Of a stretch of 64,000 bases of DNA, positions 12,680-25,257 are shown one piece after another (positions within the stretch are counted from its first letter, which is position 1; every line of letters starts with the position of its first letter). A program made the translations under genes and the position numbers. Origin of the DNA: a virus; the IMG/VR virus record IMGVR_UViG_3300013006_000018; one strand, given 5' to 3'. The notes below the pieces were generated by a model that made no database searches, was not told the DNA's origin, and worked only from the letters and a program-made list of their open reading frames with translations.

Positions 12680-14716
12680 CTAGCAGCCTAATACTACAAT
12701 TGGGCCTGGTTCTGCGGCATTCACCGGTACCCACCCTATAGAAGGTACTGAATACGGATTTGTAGATGGGTTAGAATATAACACACTAAGAGTTGAAGCT
12801 GAGATTATTCTCCATGTAGGTGTCGGCCAGTAGTCTATAACACCATTGTATGTAGTTCCAAATATTACTACTGCATCTATAAAGGGTGTTGGTGCATAAT
12901 AGAAGGGTTTATATGTCGGAATGCTGGCCGATAAGACTAGATTATAACAATTATCAATAGCAGATGTACCGGCGCCGATAACTCTTATGCTTGTAGGTAC
13001 AGCGGTTGGTGTCGGAGTCGGTGTAGAGGTTACAGTAGCTGTGGGTGTCGGTGAAGCGTTATTTGTTCGAGTTATCGAAGGTGTAATTGAAGGTGTTAAT
13101 GAATTGGTAGGTGTGGGTGAATATGTAGGTGTATTGGTTGGAGTCGTTGTATATGTAGGAGTAACTGTTGGTGTGGGTGTATTTGTTGGTGTTGCTGGAA
13201 TTGTTGGTGTCGGGGTGGGTGTTATACCGTCAAATATGCTTCCCTTGGGCAGCACAGCAGGTGCAGATATAACTTCAAAGGTTGTTATGTAGTTTGGAGA
13301 TTGAAATTCAAGAATTTCAACACTCTTGCTGTTGGTTCTTGCAATACTATTAATCAGGTGCTGCGAACTTGTATCGTAGGATGAAAAAGGTAGTAGTTTA
13401 AAATTAATTTTGAATGTATTAAAGTCAAAATTACCCATAATTGCAGTTATCGAAGCAGAAAATGAGGTTAATTCTTGTTCGGTGGGGAGATAAGTAAACT
13501 GGACGGCGTAGCTCTTAGGATCTGCAGGGTCAGCACCAATTCTAATGATATTATCTCCTGAATAGGTATAGGTAGGCACAATATCTTTTTCAATTGTAAT
13601 TGTTTTACCATTATCATTACTATAGATTAACTTTAATATCTTAAAATAATTATCGGAAATTGCAGAAGGATTTATTGTAAGTGTAAGATCACCTTTGTAG
13701 AAACCTATATCAATTTCATTACTTCTTCTTTGAATAGGATACCCCCAAGGGTAGATACTACCACCATTAGCTGATGCATTAAAGTAGAAATTAGATGCAG
13801 TTAGAATGTAGTTATATGTATTAATATCGTTATTGACCTGCTGCTGGGTGAATGAATAGTTAAACATTTTAGTAACTGCAATACTGCCTGTGTAGTGTTC
13901 TGAAGTACCGCCGTCTGGGTTAGCGTCCTCTGGCGCGCCTCCGATTTGAAGAGGCGAGGAGGATGTAGCATTAGAATTCGCGCTTGCTCCAGATATGTCT
14001 AAATCTACACCACTAACATTAAGTAGATACGTCAAAGGAAGGCTCGCTGCGGGGCGTAAATATTGCTTTACACCGTTTATATAGAGGTTAGCAATATTTG
14101 TATTTCTATTAAAGACAGCAGCTACATGATTAAACCCGTTGTGCTTTAGCGGAGACCCGCTAGTTTCAAAATAAACACAATTACAACCAGGGCCATATGC
14201 AATATTACTGCCTATACCGCTATAAACTTTACCGCTCTTTGAAACTTGTAACACATATCCCGGGCTCAACGCCCAATGCCCGTGTGAAATAATTCTTCTT
14301 TGGTTTGTTGATGGTTGAGCAGTGAAACCTGAGAATACTGATACTAAAGTAAAGCTGCCTGTACCGAAGTCGAAAGAATTGTTATCTGCAAATTTAATTC
14401 TATCTAACTTACGAGCACTTAAATTAAAATACTTGTTATTATTACTAGTAACCTTGACACTTCCTACCTGGCTATAGTTAGAAATATCGTTAACAGAAAG
14501 ATTGCCATAGTAACAGTACGGGTTAAAGGATTCTATATAAAGATTAGCGAGCTGTGGAGGTGTTGCTACCGGAGAAGAGAAATAACCGTCATTGACGGTG
14601 CATAAATAAGAAAAAGCTGTACTATAAATTGGGTCTACAAACAAATAACCGTTAATACAATCAGGTTTTTGTATAGGCGCTTGGTATGAAGACAGTACGG
14701 CAGAATAAAACTTCAC
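12680..14716 (-). CDS. LamG/ConA-like domain protein with Pro/Thr-rich stalk
   Basis: [10 protein letters not shown]...[10 protein letters not shown]...LYINGV...LQIGG...[12 protein letters not shown]; TPTPT tract near the C-terminus; GTG start 5 nt after TATAAATA. Confidence 0.75.
12995..13226 (-). repeat. Pro/Thr-coding low-complexity tract
   Basis: TPTPTPT... in the 678-aa protein; boundaries approximate. Confidence 0.85.
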
Positions 14717-14721
14717 TCAAA

Positions 14722-14729
14722 TATTTATA
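14722..14729 (-). promoter_or_regulatory. T4-type late promoter TATAAATA
   Basis: Exact consensus 5 nt before GTG 14716. Confidence 0.8.
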
Positions 14730-14762
14730 TCAATCTCTGAATTCTACCACAAATGACAGATA

Positions 14763-24169: not shown

Positions 24170-24175
24170 TTATAT

Positions 24176-24183
24176 TATTTATA
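24176..24183 (-). promoter_or_regulatory. T4-type late promoter TATAAATA
   Basis: 6 nt before ATG 24169. Confidence 0.8.
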
Positions 24184-25257
24184 TTATGTGATTTGAAAAT
24201 TATCACTAATTGTATCATAACCTATACCATTAAACATCCCTGGTGTGGGGGTTATAGAAGGAGTAATTGACGGTGTTATTGTCACGGAAGGAGTTATTGA
24301 GGCGGTTACAGTTACTGTGGGGGTTATTGTAGGTGTTGGTGTATTTGTTGCTGTCTGCGACGGTGTAACTGATGCTGTCGGCGTTTTGGTCGGTGTTATT
24401 GAAGGTGTTGGAGAATTTGTCAGTGTATTTGTCGGTGTTACTGTAGGTGTTGCTGTTGCTGTTGGTGTCGCTGTTTGTGTAGGTGTTTGTGTTTGCGTCT
24501 GAGTAGGTGTCTGTGTTTGCGTCTGAGTAGGTGTTTGTGTTTGAGTCTTTGTTGGGGTTGCTGTGACAGCAATAGTTGGAGTAACGGAAGGAGTGACTGT
24601 AGGTGTAAAAGTATTTGTTGGTGTTACTGAAGGTGTATTTGTGTTAGTCGGTGTTATGGACGGTGTGTTAGTATTTGTAGGTGTTACTGTAGGTGTATTT
24701 GTGTTAGTCGGTGTTATGGACGGTGTGTTAGTATTTGTAGGTGTATTGGTTTGTGTTTGTGTGGTTGTTGGTGTTGGTGTTTTTGTAACGGTTACTGTGG
24801 GTGTTGATGTTTTAGTAACAGAAGGTGTAATGGTTTGTGTCTGTGTGGATGTAATTGAAGGGGTCGGTGTAGATGCAGATGTAGTGGACGGTGTATTTGT
24901 ATTCGTGGGTGTAGCAGTCGGTGTTGGTGTTGGATAAAGTGTATTTGTGGGGGTAGCTGTTTGTGTAATAGTTGGTGTAGGTGTTCTTGTCTGGGTAATT
25001 GACGGTGTTATTGTTGTGGTAGGTGTAGGTGTTGATGTAGTATATGGTGATTCTGTTGGGGTAGCAGTTTGCGTACTGGTAATGGTCGGTGTTGGTGTAT
25101 ATGTGTTTGAAGGAGTCGGTGTAGGGGGTATGGCTACATCACGCGCAACACTATCACTGCCTAGAATCGCTTTAAAATTTGGCTGTAATCTATTTGTTCT
25201 ATCTTTTCGTATATAGTTATTTTTATTAATAACTTCTCTAATAGGTAATATAGCCAT
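24184..25257 (-). CDS. Almost pure Pro/Thr (mucin-like) protein
   Basis: About 45-aa basic N-terminus, about 295 aa of T/P/S/N/Q repeats, short C-terminal [14 protein letters not shown]. Confidence 0.75.
24241..25130 (-). repeat. Pro/Thr-coding tract with exact DNA repeats
   Basis: 54 bp identical at 24631-24684 and 24691-24744 (60-bp period); 24-bp units at about 24481-24545. Confidence 0.9.

Follow-up and report, generated by a model that had tools for sequence, protein, structure and literature searches.

The DNA analysed here, referred to as the window, is a 64,000-nucleotide stretch of a virus genome from IMG/VR (record IMGVR_UViG_3300013006_000018). Four minus-strand genes between positions 12680 and 25257, here PT1 to PT4, encode proteins with long (Thr-x)n tracts, or stalks, which are six in number. 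The features of this region are as follows.

5139..12643, minus strand: tail fibre with S74 chaperone domain, Mtd_N protein, NHL-repeat protein and conserved 1129-aa protein, forming the other end of the module
12680..14716, minus strand: PT1, 678 aa (N-terminal region, stalk, C-terminal domain)
14063-14395, minus strand: PT1 LamG/ConA-like domain, aa 108-218 (PF13385)
12992-13249, minus strand: PT1 Pro/Thr stalk, aa 490-575 (tract call)
C-terminal to this stalk, minus strand: PT1 C-terminal domain, 102 aa, fold without assignment
14763..15374, minus strand: 203-aa protein with a fibre-like N-terminus and without Pro/Thr tract
15406..18156, minus strand: PT2, 916 aa (RCC1, stalk, lectin-like domain, stalk, 17-aa tail)
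aa 1-370 of PT2, minus strand: RCC1 beta-propeller (Pfam)
16543-17034, minus strand: PT2 stalk 1, aa 375-538
15802-16539, minus strand: PT2 L-type-lectin-like domain, aa 540-785 (fold model)
15460-15801, minus strand: PT2 stalk 2, aa 786-899
18156..21386, minus strand: conserved 1076-aa baseplate-module protein without Pro/Thr tract
21620..24169, minus strand: PT3, 849 aa (leader, stalk, domain, stalk, protease, cupredoxin)
N-terminus of PT3, minus strand: basic leader, about 45 aa
23579-24004, minus strand: PT3 stalk 1, aa 56-197
between PT3 stalks 1 and 2, minus strand: 80-aa domain
23027-23335, minus strand: PT3 stalk 2, aa 279-381
aa 383 to about 735 of PT3, minus strand: leishmanolysin-like Zn-metalloprotease head (fold and motif)
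21623-21910, minus strand: PT3 cupredoxin domain, aa 754-849 (fold and ligands)
24184..25257, minus strand: PT4, 357 aa (leader, stalk, C-terminal peptide)
24259-25143, minus strand: PT4 stalk, 295 aa (aa 39-333), preceded by a basic 38-aa leader and followed by a 24-aa C-terminal peptide
25261..28689, minus strand: conserved 1142-aa PKD-domain baseplate-module protein
28689..30542, minus strand: gp6-like baseplate wedge protein, identifying this as a baseplate module

Tracts were called wherever T+P reached at least 60% in a 30-aa window. The six tracts in the four genes sum to 904 residues, against the roughly 850 estimated in an initial annotation of this DNA, which had also correctly described one of the proteins as almost pure stalk (83% of PT4). 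They contain 363 T (40%), 193 P (21%) and 68 S (7.5%), with Thr at every second position, such that T(i)->T(i+2) amounts to 58-85% whereas adjacent TT is found at only 3-10%. The proteome of the whole window has only 8.5% T and 4.7% P, and hence the tracts are not explained by chance; a reversed-pattern control gave zero matches in every genome searched, and a chance origin was ruled out by composition and these controls together. ORFs opposite the tracts, e.g. 23628-24191 and 24563-24937, were dismissed as by-products of the low-complexity coding strand. As long, Thr/Ser/Pro-dominated segments the tracts resemble those of mucins, whereas the secretory passage of mucins via a signal peptide has no counterpart here: crude hydropathy found neither an N-terminal hydrophobic segment (max KD(12) <=1.17) nor a TM-like segment in PT1-PT4, in keeping with the earlier statement that none has a signal peptide. 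Any modification of the stalks must therefore be cytoplasmic.

All five types of head that had been proposed (LamG, RCC1, L-type lectin, protease and cupredoxin) were verified by profile or fold. The PT1 LamG domain scores 36 bits against PF13385 (cut-off 27.6, E 1e-8) and the PT2 propeller 168 bits against PF25390 (cut-off 150, E 5e-49), with further matches to PF00415 and PF13540. For the PT2 lectin domain there was no Pfam match and a PDB sequence search gave nothing useful, and the same was true of a search of the PDB by sequence with the PT3 protease head; the identities of both were settled by fold searches. Structural comparison of PT2 aa 540-785 with VIA-align gave ERGIC-53 (Z 11.8), VIP36 (11.0), an archaeal legume-lectin domain (11.0) and Emp47 (11.0), from a model of only moderate confidence (pLDDT 63). 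The domain is thus modelled as a beta-sandwich of the legume-lectin/ERGIC-53 type, with sugar binding as a prediction.

An AF2 model of the PT3 head (pLDDT 85) found leishmanolysin/GP63 (M8), 1lml, as its top Foldseek match (E 5.6e-5 over 335 columns), with a TM of 0.33 when 1lml was compared with the two-domain model. The head shares with leishmanolysin the HExxHxxG sequence, the distal His and the Met-turn of the HExxHxxG...H...M motif (H158, E159, H162, G165, H281 and M314 in head numbering), all invariant in 23 sequences. It differs in that identity is about 15% and the match to Pfam M8 (PF01457) is local and below threshold (16.5 bits vs a cut-off of 21, E 0.0035). PT3 ends in a domain that resembles rusticyanin, plastocyanin and amicyanin in fold (E 3e-4 to 5e-3) and, like type-1 cupredoxins, has a His and a Cys-x2-His-x2-Met sequence (H407, C454, H457 and M460 in head numbering), kept in some 10 of the closest homologues. 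This domain is accordingly modelled as a cupredoxin beta-sandwich with His/Cys/His/Met ligands that is predicted to bind copper. Neither for a protease-cupredoxin fusion on a phage stalk nor for a modular architecture of heads on Pro/Thr joints did we find a described counterpart in the literature searched, and searches of GenBank phages by megablast with 20 kb and by tblastn with PT3 returned nothing. In one PT3 relative, 96% identical and encoded on a 217-kb ENA contig, a whole 165-aa domain is inserted at a tract, from which it is clear that the tracts act as recombination joints.

The stalk genes lie between the gp6-like wedge gene and the tail fibres, with sheath, tube and TerL genes farther along. 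PT1, which starts with GTG, has the late-promoter box TATAAATA 5 nt upstream, and the same box stands 6 nt before the ATG of PT3. The other two genes abut preceding structural genes, the start of PT2 sharing 1 nt with the stop of the 1076-aa gene and that of PT4 following the stop of the 1142-aa gene by 3 nt. As a lone query the 1076-aa protein found no IMG/VR relatives, so sheath and GT60 (PF11397) alignments were used to collect them. In the relative G060 the homologue of this protein carries a fused Pro/Thr stalk plus a head of 250 aa, and in G058 a single ORF combines the homologue of the 1142-aa protein with two Pro/Thr stalks and a head of 214 aa. These fusions suggest that the four stalk proteins, as part of a T4-like baseplate/tail-fibre module, are present on the virion. 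A different reading is that they are soluble late lectins and a protease released at lysis, acting on the host envelope, debris or neighbouring cells, with the stalks as mere spacers. The apparently active (predicted) metalloprotease and the blue-copper site of PT3 would be unusual for fibres, and no homologue of the stalk proteins has been solved within a baseplate. However, the genes are embedded in the module, their promoter boxes and abutment point to structural genes, relatives fuse stalk and head directly to conserved module proteins, and the PT3 C-terminal domain matches a PHROG annotated as baseplate-wedge tail-fibre connector (E 1.5e-12). We consider release at lysis quite improbable on these grounds. 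The anatomy first described, in which late tail-module proteins hold binding and lytic heads apart on stalks, was right.

The initial annotation had further suggested that self-glycosylation of the appendages may take place in the cytoplasm, by means of sugar enzymes encoded elsewhere in the window. These enzymes do exist, and comprise two GATases in addition to a GT-A transferase, an RmlD-like protein and a methyltransferase:

1-828, minus strand: AsnB-like amidotransferase, cut by the window edge
within 1..3317, plus strand: accessory operon behind a sigma70-like box, encoding a 252-aa protein, a SAM methyltransferase and a 318-aa protein
54418..55296, minus strand: RmlD-like (PF04321) NAD-dependent reductase/epimerase in the replication module
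61265..62850, minus strand: GT-A (PF13712), overlapping an upstream glutamine amidotransferase and adjoining the DnaB helicase

For the 252-aa and 318-aa proteins, atlas look-ups gave no more than weak leads. The second glycosyltransferase that had been thought possible comes down to one of these: Glyco_trans_1_2 occurs in 13% of the members of one cluster neighbouring the 318-aa protein, and nothing was found beyond that lead.

The suggested check, co-occurrence of stalks and these enzymes across relatives, was run and showed no tracking. Orthologues of both GT-A and the RmlD-like protein are kept in G066, G067, G068 and G069, which lack tracts and GT60 alike; G067, at 230 kb and 100% complete, has zero Pro/Thr tracts. 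Every relative has the two genes within its replication module, next to DnaB and primase. As for the methyltransferase/318-aa pair, just 1 of 25 relatives carries it, and the stalk-bearing G012 and G057 do not. Because tract-less relatives keep the first pair of genes and stalk-bearing relatives lack the second, the proposed link fails when judged by the refuting condition that the initial annotation had itself set. Glycosylation of the stalks by the enzymes at 61265 and 54418 and the amidotransferase/methyltransferase/possible-transferase cluster at 1-3317 is in our view very improbable, even though the genes are of sugar-handling or transferase families, and even though such enzymes could supply or extend sugars once a GT60 enzyme had initiated. 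The 1-3317 cluster is conserved beside fibre genes in the stalk-bearing G058; it is a sporadic accessory cluster whose link to the stalks would be weak. None of the GT-A, RmlD-like, methyltransferase and amidotransferase genes of the window has a specific tie to the stalks.

Relatives pointed instead to GT60. GT60 enzymes are polypeptide alpha-GlcNAc-transferases whose acceptors are mucin Thr or the hydroxyproline of Skp1 (PMC8724618, PMC6939170). In the syntenic relative G002 a GT60 (PF11397, 237 bits, E 5e-70) forms a cassette with an FkbM methyltransferase and a TylF-HtrL fusion, between an RCC1-stalk gene and a LamG-like-stalk gene. Five close relatives have a GT60 cassette between stalk genes at the position occupied in the window by the 203-aa gene (14763..15374). 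Profile matches in the relatives and in the cultured phage XacN1 are above threshold (E 5e-70 to 4e-77), and D95 and H97 of a DxH-type motif are invariant in 6 sequences. Among 25 sheath-related records, 10 have both tracts and GT60, 3 tracts only, none GT60 only and 12 neither (Fisher p = 9e-5, phylogeny not corrected for). The three with tracts only (G058, G060 and G070) are not counter-examples, because each contig ends at or near the module; that of G058 stops about where the cassette would lie. The complete relative G067 has kept the module and the lectin head, and lacks both stalk and GT60. Within the window's own clade this co-variation may reflect a single gain or loss.

No initiating polypeptide HexNAc-transferase was found within the 64-kb window. 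In the same genome, a sequence index showed a stretch 11.3 kb ahead of the window that shares words with the G002 GT60; the cassette of this genome would lie beyond the window, some 11-18 kb ahead of its first position. An exact 41-mer taken at the window start had no match in IMG/VR or in the JGI metagenome contigs.

The association recurs beyond this clade. IMG/VR holds at least 542 GT60 loci, and among the best 80 of these, 55 have tracts within 10 kb; for the 74 of the 80 without synteny to the window the figure is 49. A comparison set of 0.78 Mb of TerL and sheath loci contained zero tracts. Nearby tracts are lacking in four GT60 genomes of at least 97% completeness, and each of these carries tracts elsewhere in the genome. 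Conversely, GT60 was present in 12 of 45 records picked by tract-coding pattern alone, vs 4 of 50,697 GenBank phages. Of these four GenBank phages, the two that were checked (XacN1 and RAS14, both jumbo phages) have tracts, whereas five of their jumbo relatives without GT60 have zero.

XacN1 is a cultured phage that parallels the window in several respects. Its GT60, ORF334 (257 bits against PF11397), is 48% identical to the G002 enzyme and stands inside a transferase cluster; this cluster adjoins the gene of a 3313-aa Pro/Thr-tract protein, which itself follows the baseplate wedge genes. It differs in being a 385-kb jumbo phage of another lineage, with shorter, scattered tracts. At least two Schiff-positive glycoprotein bands, not assigned to proteins, were reported from its virions in a paper that names neither GT60, nor tracts, nor the glycoproteins (PMC5852040). 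ORF325 is one of the XacN1 proteins with Pro/Thr tracts. Virion MS data have been deposited for this phage (ProteomeXchange PXD008065).

The same records bear on another explanation, namely that the tracts are plain unglycosylated linkers and domain-shuffling joints, like bacterial Pro-Thr linkers in non-glycosylating hosts. Five of the six tract-picked records that are at least 90% complete lack GT60, which means that tracts do not require it, and the domain inserted in the 96%-identical PT3 relative is what a shuffling joint would be expected to produce. We hold plain linkers to be rather unlikely, and are similarly doubtful of the corollary that the GT60 cassette modifies a different protein of phage or host, or a small molecule, and travels with the tail module through linkage alone. 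The distance of the candidate GT60 from the stalk genes in the window's genome (>20 kb) and the 18 GT60 fragments that show no tract are in favour of such an explanation. Against it, none of the adequately complete genomes searched has GT60 but lacks tracts, the association returns at loci without synteny and in a separate cultured lineage, the GT60 enzymes that have been characterised use Thr/Pro polypeptides of just this kind, and the virions of XacN1 contain glycoproteins.

We therefore favour, at somewhat better than an even chance, a model in which PT1-PT4 are late baseplate appendages with heads on (Thr-x)n stalks that are most likely O-glycosylated by way of a phage GT60. In this model an uncultured T4-like myovirus expresses the proteins late, as components of its baseplate/tail-fibre module; each has globular heads joined by extended stalks in which x is mostly Pro. 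Their short leaders at the N-terminus would anchor them to conserved baseplate proteins, direct fusion serving this purpose in relatives, and the stalks would hold carbohydrate-binding and proteolytic heads away from the particle. Most likely the stalks would be O-glycosylated in the host cytoplasm, prior to assembly. A soluble phage GT60 polypeptide alpha-GlcNAc-transferase would initiate on Thr or perhaps on hydroxyproline, and elongation of the glycan would fall to the cassette's transferases and methyltransferases. Stalks so coated would be stiffer and better shielded against proteolytic attack, that of the phage itself included. The idea of self-glycosylation in the cytoplasm thus gains comparative support from the co-variation of GT60 and tracts, while the enzymes first named for it do not stand.

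Whether this extends to a widespread and previously undescribed cytoplasmic mucin-type system, in which GT60 and its cassette sugar-coat the (Thr-x)n stalks of baseplate appendages in environmental, mostly freshwater, large phages, we regard as evenly balanced. Our search of the literature on GT60/PF11397 in phages and on Pro-Thr linkers in phage tails found no paper describing such a system. If it exists, PT1-PT4 would form a glyco-stalked array with about 430 Thr/Ser acceptor positions, displaying lectins, a metalloprotease and a copper protein; in a rarer variant the sugar would be on hydroxyproline, as in Skp1. Were the stalks glycosylated, phage appendages would be substrates, inside the bacterial cytoplasm, of a eukaryote-type mucin-initiating family. 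Hundreds of uncultured phages would be concerned, with a bearing on how hosts are recognised, on resistance to proteases, on adhesion to polysaccharide matrices and on phage antigenicity. The soluble enzyme and its acceptor would also be a simple pair for glyco-engineering in bacteria.

To our knowledge, protein glycosylation of phage particles is known from few cases, namely mycobacteriophage capsids and tail tubes and the unassigned Schiff-positive bands of XacN1. Mycobacteriophage virions are said (Freeman et al., Cell Host Microbe, 2023, a study cited in PMC12582341) to be O-glycosylated by phage-encoded glycosyltransferases. As we would propose for the stalks, cytoplasmic phage enzymes there reportedly decorate the phage's own structural proteins before assembly. 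In contrast, the glycans are reported to sit on capsid and tail-tube subunits, at their C-terminal extensions, in siphoviruses that infect Actinobacteria; the transferases are said to belong to other families, and long head-bearing Pro/Thr stalks to be absent. In Cellulomonas fimi CenA and Cex, (PT)n linkers join catalytic and binding domains and are glycosylated in the native host, where the glycan guards against proteolysis. Those proteins are secreted, however; the linkers measure no more than 20-30 residues, and it is the host's enzymes that modify them.

The chlorovirus PBCV-1, as far as its description cited in the XacN1 paper goes (PMC7019647, as cited in PMC5852040), likewise has virus-encoded, ER/Golgi-independent glycosylation of a virion protein, but it is a eukaryotic giant virus with atypical N-linked glycans on its major capsid protein rather than on mucin-like stalks. 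The nearest counterparts of the proposed system are the protist GT60 systems. Dense Thr/Pro acceptor tracts and the same enzyme family are shared with the mucin-type O-GlcNAc of T. cruzi mucins and Dictyostelium, and like the cytoplasmic Gnt1, which acts on Skp1 hydroxyproline, the phage GT60 has neither signal nor membrane anchor and starts with its catalytic domain. The proposed system would differ from these in being phage-encoded and bacterial-cytoplasmic, and its putative acceptors are baseplate appendages with a strict (T-x)n periodicity.

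The four Pro/Thr-stalk genes of the window, PT1 to PT4, are real and unusual: their products are late appendage proteins of the baseplate module, modular in build and carried on (Thr-x)n stalks. The window is AT-rich (GC ~35%), has no tRNA genes and encodes a T4-like myovirus, with sheath, tube, large terminase and head-closure proteins, clamp loader, primase, gp32 and a DnaB-type helicase, as well as a tail fibre with an S74 chaperone domain. The stalk genes are flanked by a gp6-like wedge on one side and fibres on the other, and hence belong to the baseplate/tail-fibre module:

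5139-9253, fibres
12680-14716, minus strand, PT1
15406-18156, minus strand, PT2
21620-24169, minus strand, PT3
21623-21910, PT3 cupredoxin domain (aa 754-849), complete type-1 copper ligand set His, Cys-x2-His-x2-Met
24184-25257, minus strand, PT4
28689-30542, gp6-like baseplate wedge

The long Pro/Thr tracts noted in these late-region genes by the initial annotation were confirmed. Six tracts total 904 residues and contain 40% Thr and 21% Pro, as compared to 8.5% and 4.7% in the whole window proteome. Thr occupies alternate positions (T(i)->T(i+2) 58-85% versus adjacent TT 3-10%), and the repeat unit is therefore (Thr-x)n, where x is mostly Pro, then Asn, Val, Ser, Gln, Ala or Ile. The reversed tract pattern, used as a control, gave zero matches across all genomes searched. 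Stalk makes up 83% of PT4, and a hydrophobic N-terminal or membrane segment is absent from all four proteins. The first ~45 aa of PT3 and PT4 form a short basic leader with Ile-Pro at its end directly before the stalk, also seen in their homologues in the related record G070 and several database relatives; this leader may serve to dock the proteins on the baseplate.

The proposed heads were likewise confirmed. LamG and RCC1 domains scored above Pfam thresholds, and an AlphaFold model of the PT2 middle domain (12 homologues, pLDDT 63) gave L-type lectins as best structural matches (ERGIC-53, Z 11.8; VIP36, Emp47 and an archaeal legume-lectin domain, near 11). The PT3 protease head has 25 homologues, all with HExxH; HExxHxxG, a distal His and a Met are invariant in the alignment, and the first structural match of the model (pLDDT 85) is leishmanolysin (1lml). 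The final ~100 residues of this model match rusticyanin, plastocyanin and amicyanin and contain all four type-1 copper ligands, which about 10 of the closest homologues retain and distant homologues have lost. The cupredoxin domain is fused behind a leishmanolysin-like protease with invariant zinc ligands, and a blue-copper protein has no obvious role on a phage appendage.

Several observations bear on attachment to the particle. PT1 and PT3 are each preceded, 5-6 nt before the start, by an exact T4 late box, TATAAATA; the PT2 start and the stop of a 1076-aa gene share one base, and PT4 begins 3 nt beyond a 1142-aa gene. The stalk proteins are separate genes abutting these two baseplate-module genes in the window, whereas in two related phages baseplate protein, stalk and head are single ORFs (record coordinates):

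G058, 20683-26394 (L264-L267), 1142-aa homologue, two Pro/Thr stalks and a 214-aa head
G060, 22485-27026 (L268-L270), 1076-aa homologue, stalk and a 250-aa head

The PT3 C-terminal domain also matches a PHROG annotated as baseplate-wedge tail-fibre connector. Given the late boxes, gene abutment, fusions and PHROG match, PT1-PT4 are probably particle appendages. P0001, a 1014-aa protein 96% identical to PT3 and encoded on a 217-kb ENA contig, has an extra ~165-aa globular domain inserted after the second stalk, ahead of the protease head, which argues that stalks are joints where heads get swapped and domains are gained and lost.

The initial annotation suggested that the stalks may be glycosylated by enzymes encoded in the window. 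We surveyed orthologues in 25 IMG/VR records, with relatedness judged by sheath sequence, and the named sugar enzymes did not track the stalks. The GT-A gene (61265) and the amidotransferase gene overlapping it, like the RmlD-like gene (54418), lie within the replication module beside helicase and primase in every relative. Orthologues of GT-A and of the RmlD-like gene are kept in G066 (149 kb), G067 (230 kb, 100% complete), G068 and G069, and all four records are free of Pro/Thr tracts. G067 retains the entire syntenic baseplate module and the lectin head without its stalk, the head running directly into the next domain:

G067, 112202-114163 (L257), stalk-less L-type-lectin-like domain at the N-terminus of a 653-aa protein

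GT-A (61265-62850) overlaps the upstream glutamine amidotransferase and adjoins DnaB even in stalk-less relatives, implying another conserved role. For the 1-3317 cluster, the methyltransferase and 318-aa genes were found in 1 of the 25 records and are missing from stalk-bearing records 74-77% complete; the transferase lead for the 318-aa protein is weak. On motif inspection only, sigma70-like boxes (TTGAAA ... TATAAT-like) lie at 790-842 and 4558-4610, upstream of the plus-strand operon 843-3317 and the 420-aa gene 3295-4557, unlike neighbouring structural genes, which carry TATAAATA boxes instead.

In these sequence comparisons it is GT60, the PF11397 polypeptide GlcNAc-transferase family, that tracks the stalks, and not the named in-window enzymes. 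The syntenic relative G002 (TerL 72% identical) carries PF11397 (E 5e-70), an FkbM methyltransferase and a TylF-HtrL fusion between an RCC1-stalk gene and a LamG-like stalk gene, where the window has only a 203-aa gene; five further GT60 loci have this arrangement. Among the 25 records, 10 have tracts and GT60, 3 tracts only, 0 GT60 only and 12 neither (Fisher p = 9e-5), although the GT60 records form one subclade and the co-variation may hence be a single evolutionary event. The three records with tracts only are fragments ending at or near the module.

GT60 matches number at least 542 stretches across IMG/VR. When the best 80 loci were examined, 55 had tracts within 10 kb, amounting to 15,980 tract residues in 1.5 Mb, and so did 49 of the 74 among these 80 without detectable synteny to the window; comparison loci for TerL and sheath gave no tracts in 0.78 Mb. 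A search of 24 of the remaining best-80 records showed tracts elsewhere in 6, among them each of the four with a completeness of at least 97%. In the reverse test, GT60 occurs in 12/45 records selected solely by tract-coding DNA pattern (minimum length 25 kb); its rate among GenBank phages is 4/50,697. The relation is asymmetric: the presence of GT60 implies tracts, whereas the converse does not hold, 5/6 near-complete pattern-picked records being without GT60. In the window's own genome, a 6.8-kb stretch situated 11,307 nt ahead of the window has 10/180 short words in common with the G002 GT60 protein, partially supporting, without proving, a GT60 there.

Collectively, a putative glycocalyx of self-glycosylated stalks is plausible, and its comparative backing comes from GT60, not from the in-window enzymes. 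Virion glycosylation is established in mycobacteriophages (Freeman 2023, as cited in PMC12582341), and our literature search found no paper in which GT60 or Pro/Thr stalks are tied to glycosylation in phages. The GT60 family comprises polypeptide alpha-GlcNAc-transferases that initiate mucin-type chains in protists, and one of them, the cytoplasmic Gnt1, modifies Skp1 hydroxyproline (PMC8724618, PMC6939170). In G058 (L267, 60001-75463), a PhyH-type dioxygenase and a 2OG-Fe(II) dioxygenase lie at 1541-2374 and 10590-11243 of the stretch, close to an AsnB-like gene, an epimerase and another stalk protein. By analogy with Skp1, where a prolyl hydroxylase precedes GT60, stalk sugars could possibly be linked via hydroxyproline.

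The four GT60-bearing GenBank phages are Xanthomonas and Stenotrophomonas jumbo phages. Two were checked for the tract pattern, XacN1 (13 matches) and RAS14 (3), and in each the matches include a giant protein beside baseplate wedge genes, near a transferase cluster. Five GT60-less jumbo phages (344-368 kb), nearest by DNA polymerase, gave no tract-pattern matches. The gene order in XacN1 is as follows:

AP018399.1, 203370-223508 (L360), baseplate wedge genes, 3313-aa Pro/Thr-tract protein, GT9, carbamoyltransferase, GT60

XacN1 virions contain at least two Schiff-positive proteins, and the authors of the XacN1 paper suggest that the phage's two transferases make them; the paper identifies neither these proteins, the transferase family nor the tracts (PMC5852040). 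One of the two transferases, ORF334, is a GT60 homologue. XacN1, a cultured jumbo phage unrelated to the window's clade, has a layout resembling that clade's, and its virions stain for glycoprotein.
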